A stretch of 64,000 nt of DNA from a bacterium (GTDB lineage: Bacteria; Bacteroidota; Bacteroidia; Bacteroidales; FEN-979). Location of the stretch: assembly GCA_037141055.1 (NCBI GenBank), contig JBAXDH010000005.1, forward strand, positions 90 through 64,089, read 5' to 3'. The notes under the pieces were generated by a model, which searched no databases, was not told the origin of the DNA, and worked only from the letters and a program-made list of their open reading frames with translations. Below, in pieces: positions 24,270 through 32,956 of this stretch; position 1 is the first letter of the stretch, and every line of letters starts with the position of its first letter. Position numbers and translations under genes: made by a program.

Positions 24270-24998
24270 CTATTTGAGGTCGCTGGCTTTGGCCTGCTCG
24301 ATGATCACATCGTAGGTGTAGCCGGAACCGAAATCCCTGTTCAGGGCAACAATCCCCATGAAGGTGGCTTGCCTTCCAACTGCAACACTATCCATGGATG
24401 TGATGGTTACGTCAAATCTGTCTGAAAAGTCGGTGCCGTCCTGAATGTGAAACCAGTTTTTATTCATGATCTGGCTGTTGAATTTCACAACCACACCCCT
24501 GATGGTCACCGTTTTGCCGGCATACATCCCCGGGTTTTTATAGAGATCTGCAATGGTTATCCCGCCTTTGGGTGGGGTAACCGAGACTTCCGACCATCGT
24601 TTGATGTCTGGTTTTTTAGGAGTCAGTGGCGGCTGGTTTTCTGGCGGTGCGGTTGCCAGGGTGCTTTTGGGATCCTGTACAAAAAAGATGGAGGGGAAGG
24701 TGCGCCCCAGTTCCTTGCTTACAAAATTTTTCATCTCATATGCCTGGGCATAATAAACCGAATCTCCCGGCTTAGAGGCTGTTTTTACAACGGCTATCCA
24801 GAATTTGGCCCCGTTTTCCTCGACCTGCAGGTATGTGTAATTGCTCGTTTGAATGACCTCAGTGATCACGGTCCCGTGTGTTCCTGCGGGTAATACCGGC
24901 CCCTTGTTCTTCCCTCCGCTGCGGTAAAATATTGTCACGATGAAAAACGCTCCGAGGAGCAGCAAAACGACTGGAAATATAATTTTGTTCTTATTCAT
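24270..24998 (-). CDS. Hypothetical membrane-anchored/secreted protein with two OB-fold-like halves
   Basis: Start trimmed to ATG 24998 (MNKNKIIFPVVLLLLGAFF). Has an SNYTYLQVEENGAKFWIAV half and a KTVTIRGVVVKF...WFHIQDGT half. No family assigned with confidence. Confidence 0.35.
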   Translation of the reverse strand: MNKNKIIFPVVLLLLGAFFIVTIFYRSGGKNKGPVLPAGTHGTVITEVIQTSNYTYLQVEENGAKFWIAVVKTASKPGDSVYYAQAYEMKNFVSKELGRTFPSIFFVQDPKSTLATAPPENQPPLTPKKPDIKRWSEVSVTPPKGGITIADLYKNPGMYAGKTVTIRGVVVKFNSQIMNKNWFHIQDGTDFSDRFDVTITSMDSVAVGRQATFMGIVALNRDFGSGYTYDVIIEQAKASDLK

Positions 24999-25188
24999 AG
25001 ATAAAAGGGTTGTCCTGTTTTTTTTATTTTTCAGGGTGCAAAGATAAAAAATAATTTGGTACCAGCCGACAACAGGGGAAAGGCATTGCTGCCGCATAAC
25101 AGGGAGGCGGTTGGAGTCAGAAAGTTATACTGAATCTTGGCAGGTTTGCAATCGCAAAGCTGCTTTAATTCAGTCATACTGAGCGTTT

Positions 25189-25242: not shown

Positions 25243-26877
25243 TTAGAATCGCTGGGTGATATTGATGTATACGCGGTTGAATATCTGGTTCCTGTCGAAT
25301 GTTCCTTCATAATAGACTCCGCAGGAGAGTTTTCTGAGTATTCGCCAGGTAAGATTGACTTCGGCCATGTTTTGAGACAGTTTCGATTCTCCGCTGTAAA
25401 ATTTGTAGCTGACGTAGCGGTAGCCCAATTCTCCCGAAAGTTTTCCCGGGACAAGGTCGCGGGAGATCCCAAGGCTGTATATATTACCCGACATGTAACC
25501 TGTTTCCAGTATGGTCGCGGAAATGGTTGCGGATGCCCGGATGCCCGGAATGTTGCTGTAGGTGATATAGCCGTACAGGTTTTTTGACGGGTGGGGGTCT
25601 TTTTTACTGCTGCGGTATCCGGCGTTTACACCAATGGATAAATTATTCACGGGCTGGTAAGTTACCTGCGCTGTAAAGCCCTGGACTGCTGCTGCTTCCA
25701 GCAGTTTGTCGACAATTGACTTGTAGGTTTCGTAATAGATTACATTTTGCCGCGTGCTGTAGGAAACGGTGAGTGACAATTGCCGGATCGGTTTATACCT
25801 GAGGGATACATATAAATTCGAAAGAACCGGCGAGTTGTTTTGTGTGTATGTCGTATCCTTGCTGACGGCTGTATCCATCTGGTTCATGGTTTTTTTATAC
25901 AGGTCGACTTCCACCGATCCGAAAAAGAACAAATTGCGGATGAGCGAATTCGTGTGCTGCAGGTAGGCAAACCTCCGGTCGGTGGATCCGCTGTTCGTTT
26001 GTTGGATAAAGGCAAGGGTTGTTTGCATATTCCCGTTTTTCGTCGACAGGTCATGACCTACATAACCTCCTAATTGCAAAAGGTTTGGATTGAAACTGTA
26101 ATTTTTGTAGTCAGGTCTCGTGCCGGCGATGAGGCCAATGGTGAATTTGCCTGCCCTCAGTTCATATTGAAGTCCGTCGATGGCCCCGACGTTGGAAATC
26201 CTCGGGTTTATTTTCCGGCCCAGCCAGAGGGTGTTGGATTTGTTGAATTCATAATTAAATGCCAGGCTGTAGATTTTCAGCCCATTGAACAGGTCATTCC
26301 GGATTTCGCTCCAGTTGTCAAGTTTGTGAGCAAATGAGATGTAGGTTTCAGCAGATAATTTCGTGTTTCCGATATTCTGAATCGCCATCGAAAACGTATA
26401 CCGCATGCGTTGCGAATTGGCTGTGATGTTGGAGAAATTCGAATAGGAAGCAAGGGAAATATTTCCGCTGACAATCTGCTTTAAGGCTTTTGCCCCGGGT
26501 TTTACCGGTGCAATCGTGTCCGCTGCCACAGGAACAGGCTGCGGTGCTTCCGTTGCCGTGGCGACCGGAGTTTGAGGGCTCAATAATTGTCTGGTTGAAA
26601 ATACCTGGTCGCCCACTGAAAGTTTGATGCCGGGAAATGGCACGCACACGCATGAAATTGAAGAAATATCACTGACGGCAACGGCAGGAATGCGAACACC
26701 GTTCTGAGTGATGAACAGCGTATCCCCGGCAGAAATGTTCTCTGTGGATTGAAATTTAACATAGATATTCTGCGAGGTCACATAGGACACCTTGCCTTCC
26801 CTGGCTTCCGGAAGGTTCTGACCTGCAAGAAAGGTCCACGAAAATATCAGCAGTATTGCTGGCAGCAGGATTTTCAT
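25243..26877 (-). CDS. Outer-membrane beta-barrel protein with an N-terminal soluble domain and Pro/Ala-rich linker (candidate porin of a porin-cytochrome complex)
   Basis: 544 aa with signal peptide MKILLPAILLIFSWTFLAGQ. An ~85-aa N-domain is followed by the linker SPQTPVATATEAPQPVPVAADTIAPVKPGA. About 410 aa of alternating amphipathic strands end in the OMP-type C-terminus ...YINITQRF. Confidence 0.6.
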   Translation of the reverse strand: MKILLPAILLIFSWTFLAGQNLPEAREGKVSYVTSQNIYVKFQSTENISAGDTLFITQNGVRIPAVAVSDISSISCVCVPFPGIKLSVGDQVFSTRQLLSPQTPVATATEAPQPVPVAADTIAPVKPGAKALKQIVSGNISLASYSNFSNITANSQRMRYTFSMAIQNIGNTKLSAETYISFAHKLDNWSEIRNDLFNGLKIYSLAFNYEFNKSNTLWLGRKINPRISNVGAIDGLQYELRAGKFTIGLIAGTRPDYKNYSFNPNLLQLGGYVGHDLSTKNGNMQTTLAFIQQTNSGSTDRRFAYLQHTNSLIRNLFFFGSVEVDLYKKTMNQMDTAVSKDTTYTQNNSPVLSNLYVSLRYKPIRQLSLTVSYSTRQNVIYYETYKSIVDKLLEAAAVQGFTAQVTYQPVNNLSIGVNAGYRSSKKDPHPSKNLYGYITYSNIPGIRASATISATILETGYMSGNIYSLGISRDLVPGKLSGELGYRYVSYKFYSGESKLSQNMAEVNLTWRILRKLSCGVYYEGTFDRNQIFNRVYINITQRF

Positions 26878-26887
26878 CGCGGTGGGT

Positions 26888-29059
26888 TTACTCTTTACGT
26901 TCCAATATGTTCATCATTTTACCCCCGGATCCCGTAGGATGGCAGTTGTAACAGGCAGCACTGTTATAGGAATACCCGCTGATACCCTGGTGCTTGCTGT
27001 TTGTTGAGGATTGGGGATGGCAGGAGGTTGTGCAGGTGAATACGGCATAATTTGCAGGATTTGTATGGCAGTCGGCACAGGTATTCCATTTCCCGTTGTG
27101 CCTTCCCGAATAAATCGGAAAGTACTGGCCGTCGTGGTTCCAGTTGGCCGGATTCCAAGCTGTTTGAGAATGGCAGTCGGCACATGTGGTCGGGAACTGT
27201 GCAGCCGCATGCCCCGGGTTCGTGGTCTGGTTGTAATTCGTCAGGTGGCAGCCGACACATGTGTTGGGAGTTGTATTGTAATTCCCGTTGTGGCAGGTGA
27301 TGCAGGGCACGGATATATGCGCCCCGGCCAGGACATAATAATTGTTGTGAATCGGGAAGGTGGCAGGTGTCCAGTTCGGGTTGGTTGTATGACAAGTATT
27401 GCATGTTGAAGGATAATTGCCTGCGGCGTGGCTCGGGTTGACCGATGTGTTGTAGTTCGGCATGTGACAACCTGCACATGTATTGGGTGTGTTCACATAA
27501 CTTCCCTGGTGGCAGGCAAAGCAATTGTTGGCGATGGCGGCATGAGCTCCCGTTAGCGGATAAACATTGTTATGATTAAAGTTCGATGGCGACCAGGCAA
27601 TCTGGGAGTGGCAGGTTTCGCATGTAGTCGGGAAGTTTGATGTAATATGGTTGGGATTTGTCGATGCATTGTATTTGTCGGCATGGCATCCGAAACAAAC
27701 TCTTGCAGTTGTGTTGGTGTAGGTACCATTGTGGCACTTTGCACAATCATTGGCAATCGGGAGATGTGCCCCCGCCAGTACATAATAATTATTGTGTATG
27801 GCAAACGATGCCGGTTTCCATGTCGGAAGCGTAGAGTGGCATGTTCCGCAATCAGTGGGAATGCTAATCGCAGCATGATTCGGATTTACCGATTGGTTAT
27901 AGTTTTGGGTATGACAATTATAGCACACCATTGAAGTGCCAGCATAACCTTGAGAATGACATTTGATGCATTCTGTAGTAAGATGCGCTCCTGTAAGTGG
28001 AAAAGGGGATGTGGCATGGTTAAATGTTCCTTCTTTTGAACCTGTGGGATGGCAGGCATAGCAGGCTGGGCTGTTATAAGCATAGCCTTGAACTTCTTTG
28101 TGACCATCATTCATGTCGGGTTGGTTGTGGGCATGGCAATCAATGCAGGTAAACTGCTGATAGCTGGCCGGGTTGTTGTGACATTCGGCACAGGTGTTCC
28201 AGGTTCCGAGATGTTTCCCTGAATAAATGGGGAATGATTTGGTGTCATGTGTCCGGTATTCGGCCGGTTTCCATCCGATTTCGGTGGTGTGGCAGTCATT
28301 GCAGGTCGTTGAAAAGCCAATGGAAGAGTGGTTTGGATTTACCGTACCATTGTAGTTTGCAAGGTGACAGGAAACACATTCCCGGGAAGTACTGGCATAA
28401 TTCGGTGTTTTATGACAATCCTGGCAGGCACTGTTTGCATGTCCCCTGGTAAGCGGGAAAAAATCATGGTTGATGCCGGCTCCCGTCCATGAACCGGAGG
28501 CCATGTTGTGGCAGTCAAGGCAGTTTTTCGAAAAGCCCCCTGCCGTGTGATTCGGGTTTGTCGTGGCCGTATAATCTTTTTGATGACAATCAATGCATTC
28601 AACGCCAAGCGGGCCAAAATACAGTCTGGATGCTGATGCATTTTTGTGACAGTCGAAACAATCTGCGTTAATATGTTTTCCGACCAGCGGGAACCGGCTT
28701 CGCTGGTGAATCTCCGTAATATTATTTATAACCCAGGATATTGGAGTATGGCACCTTCCGCAGTCGGGTCCCAGGGTTTGGTTGTGCATGTCGGTGTGGC
28801 AGGAAATGCACTGCTTTCCTGCTTTGCTAAACTCCAGCGACGTGTGGCACAACCTGCAGTTCACGGCCTTATGCTGCCCTGCGAGCGGGAATTTTGTCGT
28901 ATTATGATCAAACGACAGGACCTTCATGTCAATTTTCCACCCGGTGGTGGAATGGCAATCCATGCAGTTCACAGTGAAGTTGACTCCGTGCGGAGATTTC
29001 TGGGCAAACAGGCTTACAGAAAGTATCAGCGCCAATATTAATGATGACAGTTTTCGCAT
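26888..29059 (-). CDS. Multihaem c-type cytochrome with 28 predicted haem sites
   Basis: 723 aa with a signal peptide. I count 27 CxxCH plus one CxxxCH (CTTSCH), about one haem per 26 residues. It overlaps the upstream cytochrome gene by 22 nt. Confidence 0.9.
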   Translation of the reverse strand: MRKLSSLILALILSVSLFAQKSPHGVNFTVNCMDCHSTTGWKIDMKVLSFDHNTTKFPLAGQHKAVNCRLCHTSLEFSKAGKQCISCHTDMHNQTLGPDCGRCHTPISWVINNITEIHQRSRFPLVGKHINADCFDCHKNASASRLYFGPLGVECIDCHQKDYTATTNPNHTAGGFSKNCLDCHNMASGSWTGAGINHDFFPLTRGHANSACQDCHKTPNYASTSRECVSCHLANYNGTVNPNHSSIGFSTTCNDCHTTEIGWKPAEYRTHDTKSFPIYSGKHLGTWNTCAECHNNPASYQQFTCIDCHAHNQPDMNDGHKEVQGYAYNSPACYACHPTGSKEGTFNHATSPFPLTGAHLTTECIKCHSQGYAGTSMVCYNCHTQNYNQSVNPNHAAISIPTDCGTCHSTLPTWKPASFAIHNNYYVLAGAHLPIANDCAKCHNGTYTNTTARVCFGCHADKYNASTNPNHITSNFPTTCETCHSQIAWSPSNFNHNNVYPLTGAHAAIANNCFACHQGSYVNTPNTCAGCHMPNYNTSVNPSHAAGNYPSTCNTCHTTNPNWTPATFPIHNNYYVLAGAHISVPCITCHNGNYNTTPNTCVGCHLTNYNQTTNPGHAAAQFPTTCADCHSQTAWNPANWNHDGQYFPIYSGRHNGKWNTCADCHTNPANYAVFTCTTSCHPQSSTNSKHQGISGYSYNSAACYNCHPTGSGGKMMNILERKE

Positions 29060-30654
29060 TTGAATTCTTTTATTTTATAAAGTATAAAAGCTATTCCTTT
29101 ATCCTGTGCTGGTTTGTGACATTTCGCACAGGCAACATTTTTATGTTTTCCGTCCAGTGGAAAAAGAGTTTTACTATGATCAAATTTTGTGACGGGCTTG
29201 AAAGCATCAACGCCATGACAGGAAAAACAGTCGGTTTCCCCGTTTTTCTCAAACTGCCTTGCATGAATATCCGTATGACAACTGAAGCATGTTTTGGGCA
29301 ATCCGCTGAATTGCTGGGTTGGTTCAGCGCCTTCCGTTTTTTTGAAATGACAATCCCTGCATGTTTTTTTTGCATGCGCACCGGTAAGTTCGAAATTGGT
29401 TTTGGCATGATCAAAATTAACTTTGCTCCACCTTGCTTCACTGTGGCAACTTTCGCAACTGGATCCGGGATAATACTTGTCACTGATAAAATTCTGATGG
29501 TAATTTTTATGACAATCAATGCATTGTTTCCCGATCTCCCTGAAATGCCATGTTGTATCGGTTTTCGAGATTTGTTTTTTATGACATGCAAAACATGGCG
29601 TGGCAAGGTGTGCTCCCTTGAGCGGGAAAATACCCTCATTGTGCTGGGCAATGGTATAGTTGAATTCTTTAAATCCGTATACGGTATGGCATTGTGAGCA
29701 GTCGGGAGACACACCTTGTTTGGCAAACTGGTTTTTATGATAATCGGTGTGGCAGTCGGTGCACTTGTCAAATTTTAAAGCATTTGTAAGTTTAGTTTTA
29801 TGGCATTCGATGCAGGTGACTTTTAAATGTCTGCCATAAAGTTTGAAGTCAGTTTTGTCATGGTCGAAATTTTGTCCTCCCTTGATGATGCTGAATGATG
29901 ATCCAGTATGGCATTGTGTGCATACCTGGCCGAATTTGTTGTTATGCGCATCTTTATGGCAGCTGGTGCAGTTATCGAATTTGATGCCCTTGAATTCCTG
30001 GTATTTCAGATTGTTTTTAACGCCAATTTTATGACATGTAACACAAAGAACTTCCTGGTGTTTGCCGACCAGTTGAAATTTTGCTTTGTTGTGATCAAAT
30101 TTTGTAACCGGTTTGAAAGCTTCCTGATCATGACATTCAGCACAATTTGCTGAAAGTGTTTGCTGATGGTAATCCGTATGGCATGTTAAACAAGCGGGAT
30201 TCAATCCAAGATAGGTAAATGTCTTCTTTTTAATTTTTTGATCCGAAATGTGTTCGCGTTTATGGCAGTCTATGCACTTTTTCTTTGCATGGGCCCCGGT
30301 CAGTTTAAAACCGGTAAGGTCATGGTTGAACTTATCCTTGTCAAAACGTATGATCTGAAAGTTAAGCCCGTGGTGGTCGCTGTGACAGGAAACGCATTCT
30401 TTTCCTTTTACGTCTGAAGAAGAATGATACCCTTTTTGCAGGTCGGTTCGTGCTTTAAGTTCGGTATGGCATTCAAGACATTTTTGATTTGAAACCTTTT
30501 TTCCAAGGATGTGGCATTTTGTACAGTTCGTTATTCCCTCGAGACTGGTATGTGCTTTAGAAAGTTCGCCGGGCGAAATCTGTCCGAACCCGGATCGGGA
30601 AAACAGAACGACCAGTAAAAATGCAACCGAAATATGGTTGATGTTCAGTTTCAT
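29038..30654 (-). CDS. Multihaem c-type cytochrome with 20 predicted haem sites (c7/c3-like repeat modules)
   Basis: 538 aa with a signal peptide. I count 20 CxxCH. The module CxxCHTDxH...CxxCH...FDH...F.L.G.H...CxxCH recurs. Confidence 0.9.
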   Translation of the reverse strand: MKLNINHISVAFLLVVLFSRSGFGQISPGELSKAHTSLEGITNCTKCHILGKKVSNQKCLECHTELKARTDLQKGYHSSSDVKGKECVSCHSDHHGLNFQIIRFDKDKFNHDLTGFKLTGAHAKKKCIDCHKREHISDQKIKKKTFTYLGLNPACLTCHTDYHQQTLSANCAECHDQEAFKPVTKFDHNKAKFQLVGKHQEVLCVTCHKIGVKNNLKYQEFKGIKFDNCTSCHKDAHNNKFGQVCTQCHTGSSFSIIKGGQNFDHDKTDFKLYGRHLKVTCIECHKTKLTNALKFDKCTDCHTDYHKNQFAKQGVSPDCSQCHTVYGFKEFNYTIAQHNEGIFPLKGAHLATPCFACHKKQISKTDTTWHFREIGKQCIDCHKNYHQNFISDKYYPGSSCESCHSEARWSKVNFDHAKTNFELTGAHAKKTCRDCHFKKTEGAEPTQQFSGLPKTCFSCHTDIHARQFEKNGETDCFSCHGVDAFKPVTKFDHSKTLFPLDGKHKNVACAKCHKPAQDKGIAFILYKIKEFKCENCHH

Positions 30655-30662
30655 GATTTTTG

Positions 30663-31997
30663 TTACCTGTGCTTTAACACGGCATCACCAAATTTTTTGG
30701 TGATGAGGATTCCGATTTTTTGTAAAAACTGAATTGGAAGTTCTCCTCCGGCAAAAATATAGATGAGATCATTCTTGATTTTCAACTCGACCGGATCAGT
30801 TCCCACAGTTACAATGATATCGTCCTTTTCAATGCGGACGGGGTTTGTGTTAAACATGACCTTTAGAAGACCGCTGGCTACCGCCTCATTGATTTTTTCA
30901 TTATTCTTCGGTTTTATACGGCTGAAAGCATCGCCGCGGTAGGTGAGGGTTACCTTATTCAGATCGGCGAGGAGCAGGGCTGACTCAATGGCTGAATCAC
31001 CTCCGCCGACAACCATGATATCCTTTCCGGATATTTCTTCAGGTTCTAACAGCCGGTAAGCAACTTTTTCCATAGTTTCACCGGGGATGCCGAGTTTTCG
31101 GGGAGTTCCCCTGCGCCCAATGGAGAGTAATACTGCTGCAGTAGTGAATTGTTCTCCGGTAAGGGTTTCCACTCTGAAATGCCCGTTTTCCGGAACAATG
31201 GCTTCCACTTTTGAATTCTGCCTGATCACAATGGTGTGTTTGTCCAGAACGCTTGTCCAGAAATCAAGTAATTCGGTTTTGCTTGTCTCCGACAACTTCA
31301 CTTTTCCGTGGAGGGGAACATCCATAGCAGTGGTCATCACTATTTTTGACCGCGGAAACGTAAATACAGTGCCACCTAATGTGTCCTGCTCGAGTGTTAA
31401 AAACTTAAGATGATGTTTTTTTGCGTTCAGGGAGGCGGATATTCCGGCTGGGCCTGCTCCGATAATAATGAGGTCGTAGGAGGCTGAATGATTTTTCTTC
31501 AGCGATTTAACGATGTTGTCCACTGCCTGCCTGCCCTGTTCAACGGCATTCTTTATCAAACCCATCCCGCCAAGTTCTCCTGCAATGAAAATCCCCGGAA
31601 CATTGGTCTCAAAATGTTGGTTAACATGGGGTAAATCAACACCTCTTTTTTCCGTCCCGATGCAAAGTGAAATGGCCTGTGTCGGGCAGGCATGAAAACA
31701 TGCACCGTGGCCGATGCAATGGGAGGCATTGATCGTGGTCGCTTTGCCGTTCCTGATACCAAGGATGTCTTTTTCGGGGCAGGCAGAGATGCACGCCCCG
31801 GTTCTGATGCAGCTTCCTTCATCAACGACAGGGTGGAGAGAAACAGGTTCATACAAACCGTCGAGTTTAGCCTGAACGATCTTTTGTTCAACTTTTTTGG
31901 AATCGCGTGATTGTTTGCGCAGGTAAATAAAAATAATGATCAGGCAGAGACCGATCGCTACCGAGTAGATGACAATTTGTTCAAAAATCAGTTCCAT
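30663..31997 (-). CDS. Membrane-anchored ferredoxin-like / FAD-NAD(P)-dependent oxidoreductase (thioredoxin-reductase-like fold)
   Basis: 444 aa. One N-terminal TM helix is followed by RKQSRDSKK (cytoplasmic by the positive-inside rule). Has two degenerate Fe-S motifs CIRTGACISACP and CIGHGACFHACP, a GxGxxG (IIIGAGPAG) and a second dinucleotide motif VVGGGDSAIE. Confidence 0.75.
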   Translation of the reverse strand: MELIFEQIVIYSVAIGLCLIIIFIYLRKQSRDSKKVEQKIVQAKLDGLYEPVSLHPVVDEGSCIRTGACISACPEKDILGIRNGKATTINASHCIGHGACFHACPTQAISLCIGTEKRGVDLPHVNQHFETNVPGIFIAGELGGMGLIKNAVEQGRQAVDNIVKSLKKNHSASYDLIIIGAGPAGISASLNAKKHHLKFLTLEQDTLGGTVFTFPRSKIVMTTAMDVPLHGKVKLSETSKTELLDFWTSVLDKHTIVIRQNSKVEAIVPENGHFRVETLTGEQFTTAAVLLSIGRRGTPRKLGIPGETMEKVAYRLLEPEEISGKDIMVVGGGDSAIESALLLADLNKVTLTYRGDAFSRIKPKNNEKINEAVASGLLKVMFNTNPVRIEKDDIIVTVGTDPVELKIKNDLIYIFAGGELPIQFLQKIGILITKKFGDAVLKHR

Positions 31998-32000
31998 GAC

Positions 32001-32870
32001 TTAGAATATCCAACGATAACCAAAAATGATTGTAACCGCAACGTGAATAATCATGATGATCAGCATAAGAATGGCAAAAGGCAGATGTGCCACGTGCCAG
32101 TATTTAAACAGTTCCTGCATAATAACAAGCCGGTCGATCCTCCTGTTTAGTGAAATGTCACTCTTAACAAGGTTCAGGATTGCTTTCTGCTGCGGTTTGG
32201 TAATGTTGTTTTTCCTGAGAATTGTTTTTACGTTTCGGACTGTCTTTGCGTCTTCCCGGTATTTATTGAAAAAGCGTACAAAAAAGTTTCCCTGATATAA
32301 TTCGACTTTCTTTTTGGTCGAATCAACAATCACATTGTAGCTTTCGTCGTCAAGGGCAACAAGTTCCCGGATGGTGTCTCCGATGTTGCTCTTCATCTCC
32401 CTGACTTCATTTAAACTCAGTTCCCTGCCTTCTATTGTACGCGGTATCTGAATATATATAAATCTGCCTATGATGCCGCTCAGGAAAACCGCAACCATGC
32501 TCCAGAAACTGATAGCAACGAGTCCTCCGAATTTGAAAGAGGTATGAAAAAGGACCAGGATCGGTCCTAAGGAACAGAGGAAAATATGGAATTCAAGCCA
32601 GTGCTTGAGAATACCCACCCGTGTAAGTATCCTGAACCGTTTCCGGATCATGTAAAAGGAGACCCCGATGAGCATCAGGAATGAACCGATTATACCCAGC
32701 CCATGTCCCCAAACTCCGCTGGGTTTCAGTAGTATATAGTCAGGGTGAAAGAACCTGTCTTCAATTCCGAGCCTGTAGTATGGAAATCCGATGTAGGTTA
32801 TTGCAATCAGGGCTGCAGCGACAATGGAGGATAATATTAAGAGATATATGAAATGTGCAATTTTAGACAT
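32001..32870 (-). CDS. Five-TM membrane protein with two His-x13-His pairs (candidate di-haem b-type transmembrane electron carrier)
   Basis: 289 aa with 5 hydrophobic helices. H95/H109 lie in TM3 and H262/H276 in TM5, each pair 14 positions apart. A ~115-aa Lys/Arg-rich loop lies between TM4 and TM5. A 3-nt gap separates it from the flavoprotein gene. Confidence 0.5.
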   Translation of the reverse strand: MSKIAHFIYLLILSSIVAAALIAITYIGFPYYRLGIEDRFFHPDYILLKPSGVWGHGLGIIGSFLMLIGVSFYMIRKRFRILTRVGILKHWLEFHIFLCSLGPILVLFHTSFKFGGLVAISFWSMVAVFLSGIIGRFIYIQIPRTIEGRELSLNEVREMKSNIGDTIRELVALDDESYNVIVDSTKKKVELYQGNFFVRFFNKYREDAKTVRNVKTILRKNNITKPQQKAILNLVKSDISLNRRIDRLVIMQELFKYWHVAHLPFAILMLIIMIIHVAVTIIFGYRWIF

Positions 32871-32922: not shown

Positions 32923-32956
32923 CAAAATTAAGCAAAAGAGGGCTTAATTCTTCAAA
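32923..32956 (-). promoter_or_regulatory. Candidate promoter of the cytochrome operon
   Basis: The minus strand has TTTG (32956-32953), a 22-nt spacer, then TAATTTTG (32930-32923), about 50 nt upstream of the ATG at 32870. The -7 box lies inside a tandem ATTAAGCAAA x2 (32917-32936). Confidence 0.3.

Follow-up and report, generated by a model that had tools for sequence, protein, structure and literature searches.

Organization of the cytochrome operon

The window, the 64,000-nucleotide stretch of DNA analyzed here, comes from an uncultured Bacteroidales bacterium and carries two multiheme cytochrome (MHC) genes within a five-gene operon, which raises the question of what kind of electron path these genes encode. 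The operon most likely specifies a whole-envelope electron conduit of the PCC3 type. The five ORFs (g1 to g5) lie on the minus strand with spacings of 3, 8, −22, and 10 nt, the negative value being a 22-nt overlap between g3 and g4, and the coordinates, strand, and spacing given in a previous sequence-only reading of this DNA are all verified. The features of the locus are as follows.

g1, 32001..32870, minus strand: 289 aa; inner-membrane protein, putative diheme b cytochrome of the PCC3/PCC4 IMP type
g2, 30663..31997, minus strand: 444 aa; TM-anchored Fe-S flavoprotein, predicted to face the cytoplasm
g3, 29038..30654, minus strand: 538 aa; signal peptide, 20 heme motifs
g4, 26888..29059, minus strand: 723 aa; signal peptide, 28 heme motifs
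g5, 25243..26877, minus strand: 544 aa; outer-membrane protein, modeled barrel of ~22 strands
g6, 24270..24998, minus strand: 242-aa accessory protein (275 aa by the longest ORF)
Candidate operon promoter of the Bacteroidetes type, 32923..32956, minus strand: read from the sequence
Candidate g6 promoter −7 motif TATCTTTG, 25039..25046, minus strand: read from the sequence

The Bacteroidetes sigma-A promoter consensus consists of TTTG at −33 and TAnnTTTG at −7. The candidate operon promoter has TTTG at 32956-32953 and TAATTTTG at 32930-32923, with the g1 ATG 53 nt further.

PCC3 clusters of Proteobacteria, exemplified by Slit_1446-1449 of Sideroxydans lithotrophicus, encode an inner-membrane protein (IMP), a periplasmic MHC with ~21 hemes, a large and variable extracellular MHC, and a porin (He et al. 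2017, PMC5566968). The same order is found in the window cluster, in which g3 to g5 correspond to the PCC3 components by description rather than by sequence. In addition, the window cluster has an obligatory fifth gene, g2, between the IMP and the cytochromes, whereas no flavoprotein is reported for the four-gene proteobacterial clusters. The sequence-only reading considered the architecture to be undescribed, which is overstated, since PCC3 clusters with the same IMP motifs were presented by He et al. (PMC5566968). The conduit itself is of a kind predicted in 2017, although PCC3 was still termed "functionally unverified" in a 2025 preprint, and the new element, as judged from its domains, is the obligatory NAD(P)H-type flavoprotein. 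No description of a ferredoxin/FNR-like flavoprotein as an obligatory partner of such a conduit was found in the literature.

The inner-membrane protein and its putative flavoprotein partner

Five hydrophobic helices are predicted in g1, as previously noted, but the two His-x13-His pairs of the earlier description are in fact three (42/56, 95/109, and 262/276), of which only the last two are conserved. These form the motifs W91-x3-H95-x13-H109 on TM3 and W258-x3-H262-x13-H276 on TM5, while TM4 carries S131-G-x-x-G135 and is separated from TM5 by a basic loop of ~110 residues. The five TM helices and all of these motifs agree with the PCC3/PCC4 IMP, a protein of ~300 aa with five TM helices, SGxxG on TM4, and W-x3-H-x13-H on TM3 and TM5 (PMC5566968). 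Among 105 diverse g1 relatives (30 to 57% identity), H95 is conserved in 99%, H109 in 100%, H262 in 91%, and H276 in 94%, so the TM3/TM5 pairs hold up in homologues. The positive-inside topology of g1 places one His pair at each membrane face, and the protein putatively binds two b hemes.

The family to which g1 belongs is less apparent. The PCC3 IMP has been likened to FRD/NOX proteins (He et al. 2017, PMC5566968), and in NOX/FRE enzymes and in MsrQ plus Fre, the ligands of two b hemes are His pairs on TM3 and TM5 that are 13 residues apart, the spacing also seen in g1 (PMC5676040). The electrons in these systems also come across the membrane from a cytoplasmic NAD(P)H flavoenzyme, the same concept as in g1-g2. 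Fre, the flavin reductase that serves MsrQ, is a protein of its own. However, g1 has five TM helices instead of the six of NOX/FRE-type enzymes, and the acceptor is a multiheme chain, in contrast to O2, Fe-chelates, or MsrP. g1 itself has no Pfam match, its relatives give weak, subthreshold matches to DUF4405, Ferric_reduct, and Ni_hydr_CYTB, and hhalign comparisons of g1 with Escherichia coli MsrQ and with YodB were negative. AF2 models g1 poorly (pLDDT 65), and neither Foldseek nor PDB profile searches found a match for it. Membership of g1 in the FRD/NOX family is thus not demonstrable.

The g2 product has a single predicted N-terminal TM helix followed by a basic stretch, and it carries neither a Tat nor a Sec signal, on which basis it is predicted to be cytoplasmic. 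It carries two Fe-S motifs of the ferredoxin type, C63-x2-T66-x2-C69-x3-C73-P and C94-x2-H97-x2-C100-x3-C104-P, ahead of a TrxR/YpdA-like module binding FAD and NAD(P) that has no redox-active CxxC. The TM prediction and the Pfam matches (Pyr_redox_3, 7e-42; Fer4_10, 5e-10) agree with the domains recognized from the sequence earlier. The six motif cysteines and His97 are invariant in 80 of 80 sequences. Position 66 is mostly Thr (72 sequences), with Ser in 5 and Cys in 3. A redox-active disulfide is not expected in g2, since its cysteines are confined to the Fe-S motifs, the TM helix, and position 112. The YpdA-like NCBIfam model scores 155 bits, under its cutoff of 339.9, and the closest solved structures are those of YpdA/Bdr and of TrxR-type FNRs. 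By these matches, g2 combines a ferredoxin domain with a TrxR-type FNR/YpdA-like module in one chain and has a two-Rossmann fold plus Fe-S clusters in place of the FNR fold of NOX.

Relatives on gammaproteobacterial plasmids bear on the relationship between the two proteins. By hhalign, the IMP homolog of the Alteromonas plasmid pAM1A3 aligns with the profile of the g1 family (99.1%, 1.7e-18). On Alteromonas and Methylophaga plasmids, the IMP gene is preceded by a gene for a FAD_binding_6 + NAD_binding_1 + 2Fe-2S flavoprotein, with a predicted TM anchor in Alteromonas, and followed by a gene for a small multiheme cytochrome, which has 7 CxxCH motifs in Alteromonas. This FNR-type flavoprotein is not homologous to g2, yet it adjoins a g1-type membrane protein. 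Such a swap is difficult to account for if the flavoprotein is not the membrane protein's direct redox partner. The split NOX-like module proposed in the sequence-only reading therefore gains support by analogy from the plasmid partner swap, but not in its FRD/NOX membership or in the fold of g2.

Pfam and NCBIfam reveal no CymA/NapC-, ImcH-, or CbcL-type protein in the cluster, as had been claimed, and the flavoprotein may let the conduit bypass the quinone pool. An unlikely alternative retains the outer PCC3 part and makes g1 a quinone-reactive cytochrome b, that is, a menaquinol:cytochrome c oxidoreductase, with g2 feeding or poising a local quinone pool like the dedicated Ndh2 in Listeria EET or having an accessory redox role. 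The PCC3 IMP was indeed proposed to be quinone reactive, and it was compared with the cytochromes b of two quinone-reactive enzymes, the bc1 complex and NiFe hydrogenase (PMC5566968). The weak matches of g1 relatives to Ni_hydr_CYTB and DUF4405 are as frequent as those to Ferric_reduct, and the four-gene proteobacterial clusters include no flavoprotein gene. A 2025 paper on the FRD-type protein MsrQ reportedly describes an unexpected ubiquinone cofactor, as its title states (PMC12525009). Against a quinone-reactive g1 stand the position of g2 beside g1 in 76 of 77 loci, a pairing that survives gene reshuffling, and the nonhomologous NAD-binding Fe-S flavoprotein at the same position in the gammaproteobacterial relatives. 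In addition, two Fe-S clusters, one with an invariant His, suit protein-to-protein transfer over quinone reduction.

Multiheme cytochromes and the outer-membrane barrel

The heme counts reported previously are exact, with 20 CxxCH motifs in g3 and 27 CxxCH plus one CxxxCH (CTTSCH, residue 676) in g4. The two proteins contain 45 and 57 His residues, respectively, which are enough for bis-His ligation of every heme. g3 matches Pfam Cytochrome_C7 (5e-21) and, weakly, the DmsE/MtrA family (55 bits; cutoff, 192). Both cytochromes weakly match the HmcA model, and both match the MtrC/MtrF domain II/IV model below the family cutoffs. The two differ in their variability. Twenty hemes are present in 67 of 72 g3 homologs, whereas g4, built of ~74-aa three-heme repeats with a motif spacing cycle of ~15/25/33 residues, has homologs with 13 to 64 hemes, in a 3n+1 count in 59 of 62. 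Even in a sister strain with an identical g1, g4 has 695 aa, compared with 723 aa here. This contrast fits the periplasmic/extracellular pair of PCC3, in which the extracellular MHC is likewise large and repetitive, with 10 to 63 hemes. g3 is the conserved member and probably extends across the periplasm into the barrel, like the PCC3 periplasmic MHC or MtrA, and g4 is the variable member, probably a distal or extracellular wire. Neither a lipobox nor a T9SS C-terminal domain was found in g4 by sequence and Pfam, which counts against placing it at the cell surface.

g5 consists of a signal peptide, a small conserved N-terminal beta domain (residues 27 to 94), a disordered Pro/Ala/Thr linker (97 to 128), and a barrel (135 to 543). 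The AF2 model (mean pLDDT, 74.5) contains 22 long beta strands within residues 135 to 543, above the limit of 16 set in the sequence-only reading, and the C terminus ends in Phe (...TQRF), as stated there. The best Foldseek matches are the large outer-membrane barrels FimD, OccK/OpdK, and PfeA (E values down to 1e-9; TM-scores, 0.35 to 0.49), while Pfam and NCBIfam searches gave no match and hence none to any porin family.

MtrCAB of Shewanella and the Omb/Oma/Omc and Ext systems of Geobacter share the logic of a periplasmic MHC that sits in an outer-membrane barrel and touches an outer cytochrome. The MtrB barrel has 26 strands, compared with ~22 modeled in g5. The heme numbers of the window cluster are 2 to 6 times larger than those of the Shewanella and Geobacter systems, and g4 is not a lipoprotein.

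Distribution and gene order

The survey covers 80 Bacteroidota loci, 49 of which are sufficiently long loci from Bacteroidota species genomes. The order g1-g2-g3-g4-g5 is complete in 48 of these 49, with g5 as the final gene of the cluster in 48, and this recurrence of the same families in the same order indicates that the five-gene arrangement is not due to chance. The five families recur, sometimes rearranged, in Marinimicrobia, Krumholzibacteria, and other FCB lineages, so the co-occurrence anticipated earlier extends across genomes and phyla. The order is g1-MHC-MHC-barrel-g2 in Krumholzibacteria and g2-g1, followed by an unrelated minus-strand gene and an MHC, in an unclassified bacterium; Marinimicrobia, an FCB-group MAG, and further lineages have the same families with extra genes. 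The carriers, by their record titles, are Bacteroidales, Marinilabiliales, and Lentimicrobiaceae-type MAGs, and they were obtained from anoxic lake water, groundwater, sediments, and digesters. The FCB hosts, which we take to be organotrophs, differ from the iron oxidizers that carry proteobacterial PCC3.

A "gigantic" porin-multiheme cluster with adjacent 61- and 20-heme cytochromes, without synteny to characterized PCC modules, has been described in a Lentimicrobium MAG (Nat Commun 2026, PMC13013709). The same combination, a 20-heme partner and a 61-heme g4 homolog (L071), occurs in the surveyed family, and several loci are labeled Lentimicrobiaceae, a family of carbohydrate fermenters in the account given there. 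We infer from this match of descriptions, not of sequences, that the Lentimicrobium cluster belongs to the surveyed family; the passages on that cluster mention neither an inner-membrane protein nor a flavoprotein (PMC13013709).

Some loci point elsewhere. One MAG (L026) has g1-g2 in the same chromosomal context with the cytochromes and barrel gone, and an Ignavibacteriaceae IMP homolog stands alone, directly after two TonB-dependent receptor genes; both count against a dedicated conduit. Another g1-g2 pair has a divergent TonB-dependent receptor gene upstream. The cluster is also found on plasmid pEMTOL02 of the cultured Emticicia oligotrophica, presumably an aerobe. The loci with TonB-dependent receptors and the Emticicia plasmid would suit a nonrespiratory role, either as an extracellular reductase that acquires metals by assimilatory reduction of ferric iron or siderophores, as yeast FRE does, or in detoxification or redox homeostasis, and eukaryotic FRD-type proteins do act in iron assimilation. 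Such a role seems improbable for this cluster, as its at least 48 hemes, its dedicated porin, and g4 homologs with up to 64 hemes far exceed the needs of chelate reduction. Moreover, a homolog survey and gene tables, with unsystematic screening of neighbors, showed no iron transporter as a conserved neighbor of the cluster among the 80 Bacteroidota loci. Nor did the loci examined show a link to a soluble-substrate reductase, the kind of linkage named in the sequence-only reading as contrary evidence.

Proposed path and direction of electron flow

The preferred reading, to which we assign a probability of roughly 55%, is a PCC3-type conduit across the whole envelope with outward flow. The FAD of g2 would be reduced by NAD(P)H or another donor of similarly low potential and pass the electrons to the two Fe-S clusters of g2. 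From there, through contact of g2 with g1, they would reach two stacked b hemes, with H95/H262 on the cytoplasmic side and H109/H276 on the periplasmic side, which would carry them to the periplasmic face. The 20-heme g3 would bridge the periplasm and enter the ~22-strand barrel of g5, and g4, a modular three-heme chain of species-dependent length, would form the distal, probably surface-exposed end, in contact with Fe(III)/Mn(IV) minerals, humic substances, or a partner cell. Flow would most probably be outward, and the conduit would then act as an electron sink through which a fermentative or anaerobic Bacteroidales cell could regenerate its NAD(P)+ without the quinone pool.

The direction of flow is not set by the sequence, as recognized in the sequence-only reading, and electrons might instead be taken up, with Fe(II), reduced humics, a cathode, or a syntroph as their source, and pass inward via g4, g3, and g1 to g2, which would reduce NAD(P)+ or a ferredoxin-like acceptor. 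Fe(II)-oxidizing Proteobacteria are the organisms in which PCC3 was first described, and there it is a candidate iron oxidase for which such uptake has been hypothesized; TrxR-type FNRs are reversible enzymes. Inward flow is nevertheless disfavored by established bioenergetics and appears quite improbable, since electrons moving in oppose the membrane potential, transfer from Fe(II) or humics to NAD(P)+ is steeply uphill, and the cluster has no energy-coupling subunit. Its carriers, moreover, are carbohydrate fermenters in the case of the Lentimicrobiaceae and, we assume, organotrophs otherwise. In the Tmc and Hmc transmembrane redox complexes of sulfate reducers, redox reactions of the periplasm and the cytoplasm are linked through a periplasmic MHC, a cytochrome b in the membrane, and an Fe-S protein in the cytoplasm, and electrons presumably move inward to sulfite reduction. 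These complexes have HdrD/HdrE-type subunits and neither a flavoprotein nor an outer-membrane porin, and no subunit homology with the window cluster was found past generic cytochrome c3 repeats.

The accessory gene g6

The likely start of g6 is ATG 24998, the same as the start called on a sister contig. The gap of 145 nt between g5 and g6 given in the sequence-only reading applies only to the longest ORF (start 25097); from ATG 24998, the interval is 244 nt and contains a TAnnTTTG motif of the Bacteroidetes type. This motif, TATCTTTG, lies 41 nt ahead of ATG 24998, within the longer 275-aa ORF. A minus-strand scan of the g5-g6 interval gave no intrinsic-terminator-like site, and g6 is probably under its own promoter. 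Its product has a TM anchor, a GW/SH3-like domain with a weak Pfam GW match, and an OB-like domain. No g6 lies beside the cluster in OY762227.1. A g6 homolog is located within 10 kb of the cluster in 28 of 80 loci, either downstream, divergent upstream, or upstream on the same strand, and the homolog in Emticicia, annotated as a "GW dipeptide domain-containing protein," directly follows the barrel gene.

Organization of the cluster

The window encodes a compact five-gene cluster (g1 to g5) and a downstream gene (g6), together with candidate promoter motifs:

32001-32870, minus strand: g1, five-TM inner-membrane protein (IMP), 289 aa
30663-31997, minus strand: g2, TM-anchored Fe-S flavoprotein, 444 aa
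29038-30654, minus strand: g3, 20-haem cytochrome, 538 aa
26888-29059, minus strand: g4, 28-haem cytochrome, 723 aa
25243-26877, minus strand: g5, outer-membrane barrel, 544 aa
24270-25097 as the longest ORF, 24270-24998 from the probable ATG, minus strand: g6, accessory gene
32923-32956, minus strand: candidate Bacteroidetes-type promoter motifs (TTTG ... TAnnTTTG) upstream of g1
25039-25046, minus strand: candidate -7-type motif TATCTTTG (TAnnTTTG), 41 nt upstream of ATG 24998 and inside the longer g6 ORF

An ORF check reproduced what an earlier, sequence-only reading had given for the coordinates of all six ORFs, the g1-to-g5 spacings of 3, 8, -22, and 10 nt, and the haem motif counts, which are exactly 20 CxxCH in g3 and 27 CxxCH plus CTTSCH in g4. 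No CxxCH-rich protein other than these two is encoded in the 64-kb window, and the cluster is flanked by housekeeping genes (aroE-like, comA, and a TPR protein gene upstream; rpsO and pnp downstream). A sigma-70 promoter scan, with a model ill-suited to Bacteroidota, gave no excess over the shuffled expectation. Known conduits are thought to begin at quinol dehydrogenases. As that reading had proposed for the cluster, none of its six proteins matches the CymA/NapC-NirT, ImcH, or CbcL families, the best hit among quinol-dehydrogenase families being NrfH at E=0.017 and 15 bits (cut-off, 134).

Conservation and spread

More than 7,000 relatives of g1 are present in a 5.8-billion-protein collection, in which those with names are all "hypothetical protein" entries from Bacteroidota metagenome-assembled genomes (MAGs), and g1 has 2,792 cluster representatives at 50% identity (E<=1e-3). 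The system is very widespread, with IMP relatives in at least 573 genomes in a scan of one genome per GTDB species. Synteny was surveyed in the best 80 loci, all from Bacteroidota MAGs of lakes, groundwater, sediments, and reactors. Among these best 80, g2 directly follows g1 in 76 of the 77 loci with enough sequence, and the order g1-g2-g3-g4-g5 is complete in 48 of the 49 that are long enough, g5 being the last cluster gene in those 48. The sole exception (L024, 12217-18055, an MFD-series MAG) has all of its genes fragmented; its g2 to g5 are split into many short ORFs, which could be explained by assembly indel errors or a decaying cluster.

The g1-g2 pair is also kept in three more lineages, two of which retain the cytochromes and a ~550-aa protein. 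The Marinimicrobia order is g1-g2-(170 aa)-MHC-MHC-(266 aa)-527-aa protein, MHC denoting a multihaem cytochrome, and an FCB-group MAG shows a Marinimicrobia-like pattern with a T9SS-tailed cytochrome upstream. The order in Krumholzibacteria is shuffled to g1-MHC-MHC-529-aa protein-g2, and in an unclassified bacterium g2-g1 is followed by an unrelated minus-strand gene and then an MHC. With 48 of 49 loci in order and further examples beyond the Bacteroidota, the five families clearly co-occur across genomes, as the sequence-only reading would have them do. The non-Bacteroidota clusters contain extra conserved small genes (L083, 12192-12704 and 17284-18084; L089, 15822-16622; L095, 11970-12800), namely, a gene of ~170 aa that follows g2 in Marinimicrobia and one of 266-276 aa that separates the large cytochrome from the barrel. 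The L095 protein of the latter type has no Pfam match, and the Marinimicrobia one shows a faint Cytochrome_C7 match.

In the loci examined, a catalytic subunit is never adjacent to the cluster, and the interpretation of the cluster as a soluble-substrate reductase was rejected. Homologs of the IMP adjoin TonB-dependent receptor genes in Ignavibacteriaceae (L087/L088, 5011-10876) and in L096 (6820-9864), and one of them has no flavoprotein or cytochrome nearby, which suggests that the IMP family may also serve outside porin-cytochrome conduits. These neighbors, found in two lineages, hint that the system might be an assimilatory or protective extracellular reductase, a reading that we nevertheless hold to be improbable. 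One Bacteroidota MAG (L026, 8973-11256) has the upstream synteny of the window (TPR protein, ComA, shikimate dehydrogenase, g1, and g2), with a GH2 glycosidase gene after g2 where the cytochromes and barrel would be. The missing genes may have been deleted or lost through mis-assembly, or g1-g2 may here be a module that stands alone.

Comparison with PCC3 and other porin-cytochrome systems

He et al. (2017, PMC5566968) defined the PCC3 porin-cytochrome clusters of Proteobacteria as comprising a porin, one MHC that is extracellular, another that is periplasmic, and an IMP. The MHC predicted to be extracellular has a median of 34 haems and up to 63, and the periplasmic one has a median of 21 (range, 21 to 27). 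The IMP is described as ~300 aa long and as having five TM helices, of which TM4 bears SGxxG and TM3 and TM5 each bear W-x3-H-x13-H (PMC5566968), and this signature is fully present in g1. The size-conserved periplasmic MHC of ~21 haems corresponds to g3, whose 20 haems are invariant in 67 of 72 homologs, and the repetitive, variable second MHC corresponds in haem number and repeats to g4, which has 28 haems in three-haem modules and 13 to 64 haems in its homologs. By the published description of PCC3, g3 and g4 thus match in these features its conserved periplasmic and variable, predicted extracellular pair. The porin gene of PCC3 has its counterpart in g5, a modelled 22-strand barrel encoded last. 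In Sideroxydans ES-1, the PCC3 order is IMP, periplasmic cytochrome, extracellular cytochrome, and porin (Slit_1446-1449), which, compared by description, is the order in the window minus the inserted g2. An Fe-S flavoprotein like g2 was not reported in PCC3 by He et al. (PMC5566968), who noted, apart from "another redox protein" close to shorter IMPs, just an Fe-S gene in subgroup II of PCC4. A 2025 preprint still lists PCC3 as "functionally unverified."

The architecture minus g2 has already been described as PCC3. The sequence-only reading regarded the whole as uncharacterised; the other four parts are known from description (He et al. 2017, PMC5566968), and our literature search turned up no earlier account of a flavoprotein partner, nor any that places the cluster in Emticicia, Marinimicrobia, or Bacteroidales. 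Judged from its published description (PMC13013709), the porin-MHC cluster of a Lentimicrobium MAG belongs to the surveyed family. MtrCAB/MtoAB systems combine a TIGR03508 decahaem cytochrome with an MtrB/PioB porin, whereas g3 scores below the cut-off of the DmsE/MtrA-family model TIGR03508 (55 bits; cut-off, 192) and g5 has no Pfam or NCBIfam match, MtrB/PioB porins included.

Inner-membrane protein

The g1 protein has five hydrophobic helices, with the motifs W91-x3-H95-x13-H109 on TM3, S131GIIG135 on TM4, and W258-x3-H262-x13-H276 on TM5. Two H-x13-H pairs had been counted in the sequence-only reading; three are present, and it is the pairs on TM3 and TM5 that are conserved among 105 full-length relatives with 30 to 57% identity.

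Conservation of g1 histidines among 105 full-length relatives
H42, 50%
H56, 66%
H95, 99%
H109, 100%
H262, 91%
H276, 94%

On the positive-inside rule, the RKRFR stretch after TM2 and the basic 110-residue TM4-TM5 loop would put H95 and H262 close to the cytoplasm and H109 and H276 close to the periplasm. This predicted geometry is as needed for two b haems stacked across the membrane. He et al. likened the PCC3 IMP to the ferric reductase domain (FRD) of NOX/FRE and proposed that it is a quinone-active cytochrome b (PMC5566968). FRD enzymes ligate two b haems by two His pairs ~13 residues apart on TM3 and TM5, and g1 shares these motif positions, which are conserved and would be its putative haem ligands.

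Membership of g1 in the FRD/NOX family is not demonstrable. The protein has no match in Pfam (at E<=0.1) or NCBIfam, and among 29 distant relatives all matches are below cut-offs (DUF4405 in 18, Ferric_reduct in 11, and Ni_hydr_CYTB in 7), the best to Ferric_reduct (PF01794) being 2.6e-4. Alignment of the g1 family by hhalign was negative with both E. coli MsrQ (probability, 0.6%) and the cytochrome b561 YodB, and accordingly no FRD or b561 family membership is claimed. The AF2 model of g1 (mean pLDDT, 65) is too poor for a fold search, Foldseek of this model against the PDB gave nothing below E=0.2, and the g1-family profile gave only chance matches, to the helical loop, among PDB sequences.

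Two leads for fused proteins were discarded. P0318 (418 aa) contains half of g1 and half of g2 with unrelated joining sequence, which we attribute to a frameshift or a chimeric gene call rather than to a Rosetta-stone fusion; P0284 has just a DUF6572-like N-terminal extension.

Fe-S flavoprotein and its replacement in Gammaproteobacteria

The g2 protein has a single N-terminal hydrophobic helix followed by a basic stretch, and it matches Pyr_redox_3 (7e-42, 144 bits, above the cut-off) and 4Fe-4S ferredoxin models in Pfam. It is predicted to be anchored by this helix, to face the cytoplasm, and to join a ferredoxin domain with two clusters to a TrxR/YpdA-like FAD/NAD(P) module. Its score against TIGR04018 (YpdA) is 155 bits (cut-off, 339.9), and its nearest solved structures are YpdA/Bdr (7a76/7a7b) and TrxR-type ferredoxin-NADP reductases (3ab1/2zbw/5ygq), to which g2 adds the N-terminal TM helix and the ferredoxin domain. 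No CxxC or Cys pair occurs in g2 outside the Fe-S motifs, and for want of such a redox-active pair a role as a thiol-disulfide reductase was rejected. Of the two Fe-S motifs (residues 63-104), the second is always C-x2-H-x2-C-x3-CP, with His97 in 80 of 80 sequences; as the second ligand of the first, most Bacteroidota have Thr or Ser, and other phyla have Cys. This pattern suggests that the cluster where electrons leave the flavoprotein is His-ligated or of the 3Fe-4S type.

In NOX, FRE, and MsrQ systems, the FAD/NAD(P)H domain has the FNR fold, whereas that of g2 is Pyr_redox_3/TrxR-like. An FNR-fold partner (FAD_binding_6 and NAD_binding_1, weak NAD_binding_6) occurs only beside gammaproteobacterial homologs of g1, which are shorter IMPs on plasmids of Alteromonas macleodii, Methylophaga, and Legionella; hhalign shows the Alteromonas plasmid IMP to be a homolog of the g1 family (99.1%; E, 1.7e-18). 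In the plasmids of Alteromonas and Methylophaga, the gene before the IMP encodes a 612-644-aa protein that combines FAD_binding_6 and NAD_binding_1 with a 2Fe-2S domain at its C terminus and that has a predicted TM anchor in Alteromonas; the gene after the IMP encodes a small multihaem cytochrome, which in Alteromonas has 7 CxxCH. The same slot beside one IMP family is thus filled by two unrelated NAD(P)H-type Fe-S flavoproteins, which is most simply explained if the flavoprotein serves the putative di-haem IMP as its redox partner on the cytoplasmic side. In E. coli MsrQ/Fre, which is NOX-like and split, a protein of its own acts as the flavin reductase. The idea of a split NOX in the window gains from the flavoprotein swap as a statement about function and is not demonstrable as a statement about FRD/NOX family membership.

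Given an NAD(P)H-type partner that is conserved in one form or the other, we think it unlikely that g1 is a quinone-reactive cytochrome b, as its PCC3-type signature would imply under the proposal of He et al. The three-gene flavoprotein-IMP-cytochrome module is found in L093 (Alteromonas macleodii pAM1A3, 62150-68648) and L092 (Methylophaga plasmid). In Alteromonas, it is followed by a gene for a 407-aa polytopic membrane protein and by NiFe-hydrogenase structural and maturation genes, and a link of the module to hydrogenase is possible.

Multihaem cytochromes

Pfam and NCBIfam identify cytochrome c7/c3 repeats in g3 and g4, whose 45 and 57 His residues, respectively, are enough for bis-His ligation of every haem. 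The signal peptide of g3 points to a periplasmic location. In g4, an ordinary signal peptide is present, and neither a lipobox cysteine nor a T9SS C-terminal domain was detected, a weak point of its proposed position outside the cell. The haem count of g4 equals 3n+1 in 59 of 62 complete homologs (13, 16, 19, 22, 25, 28, 31, 37, 40, 49, 55, 58, 61, and 64; loci L003-L082), and in the g4 of the window the motif spacing recurs at ~15/25/33 residues in ~74-aa units, indicating that this cytochrome evolves by gain and loss of ~74-aa three-haem modules. A sister-strain contig (ERZ1426841) with a 100% identical g1 encodes a g4 of 695 aa in place of 723 aa, so that even strains this closely related differ in how long the distal cytochrome is.

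Outer-membrane barrel and accessory protein

The AF2 model of g5 (mean pLDDT, 74.5) consists of a signal peptide, a small conserved beta domain (27-94), a disordered Pro/Ala/Thr linker (97-128), and 22 long strands from residue 135 to the C-terminal Phe, above the ~16 strands that the sequence-only reading had set as the minimum. Such a barrel would in principle be large enough to hold a haem wire. Foldseek of the model returned generic large outer-membrane barrels only (FimD usher, OccK porins, and the TonB-dependent receptor PfeA; TM-scores, 0.35 to 0.49). The strongly conserved N-terminal beta domain of ~70 residues, borne on its Pro/Ala/Thr-rich linker (residues 27-128 together), might be a plug or a cytochrome docking domain.

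The g6 product has GW/SH3-like and OB-like domains and is an accessory, non-redox, membrane-anchored protein whose link to the system is real but facultative. Of the 80 loci, 28 have a homolog no more than 10 kb from the cluster, and three arrangements occur, with the gene downstream, upstream and divergent, or upstream and on the same strand. The g6 start is probably ATG 24998. The TAnnTTTG motif before this start would fit g6 being transcribed separately; between g5 and g6, the scan picked up no terminator-like site on the minus strand.

Proposed electron path and its implications

Comparative evidence supports well a conduit with a predicted NAD(P)H-linked inner-membrane module. Electrons would pass from NAD(P)H to the FAD and two Fe-S clusters of g2, through the two b haems of g1 to the 20 haems of g3, and then through the g5 barrel to the 28 haems of g4 and an extracellular acceptor. 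By established bioenergetics, outward transfer with protons released inside would be electrically downhill and conserve no energy, which would suit an electron sink for fermenters. We tentatively propose, with a probability of about 0.4, a quinone-independent, NAD(P)H-driven conduit spanning the whole envelope and found FCB-wide, in which a split NOX-like g1-g2 module is wired to g3, a porin, and an extendable nanowire of three-haem repeats, and by which fermentative Bacteroidota and their relatives, needing no respiratory chain, may pass reducing equivalents to minerals, humics, electrodes, or partner cells. The same proteins would operate inward in electron uptake, the role that PCC3 is assumed to have in iron oxidisers. 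However, electrons moving in to NAD(P)+ would have to climb both the redox and the membrane potential, and no coupling subunit is encoded, which makes this direction very unlikely.

If the outward, NAD(P)H-driven mechanism is true, very common anaerobic heterotrophs living in lake hypolimnia, sediments, groundwater, and digesters would be able to discharge electrons from NAD(P)H directly to the outside, and fermentation, the reduction of iron and humics, and electron transfer between species would have to be budgeted differently in these habitats. It would also represent a different solution for the inner-membrane step of extracellular electron transfer and suggest a function for the PCC3/PCC4 IMP, unexplained since 2017. 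The g4 homologs, in three-haem steps from 13 to 64, provide a natural series for studies of wire-length tuning.

A complete cluster on an Emticicia plasmid

The cultured strain Emticicia oligotrophica DSM 17448, presumably an aerobe, carries a complete cluster on its 100-kb plasmid pEMTOL02 (L091, NC_018749.1 78197-90781), which makes the hypothesis directly testable. The order is ccsA-g1-g2-g3-g4-g5 and then a g6 homolog. The gene directly before the cluster is a fused cytochrome c biogenesis gene annotated ccsA, and the g6 homolog directly after the barrel gene (L091, 18713-19483) is annotated as a "GW dipeptide domain-containing protein." The location of the whole cluster on a plasmid suggests horizontal mobility. 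A tblastn search of g5 and g3 against plasmids recovered no proteobacterial PCC3 locus and only Emticicia, plus unrelated short cytochromes in sphingomonads.
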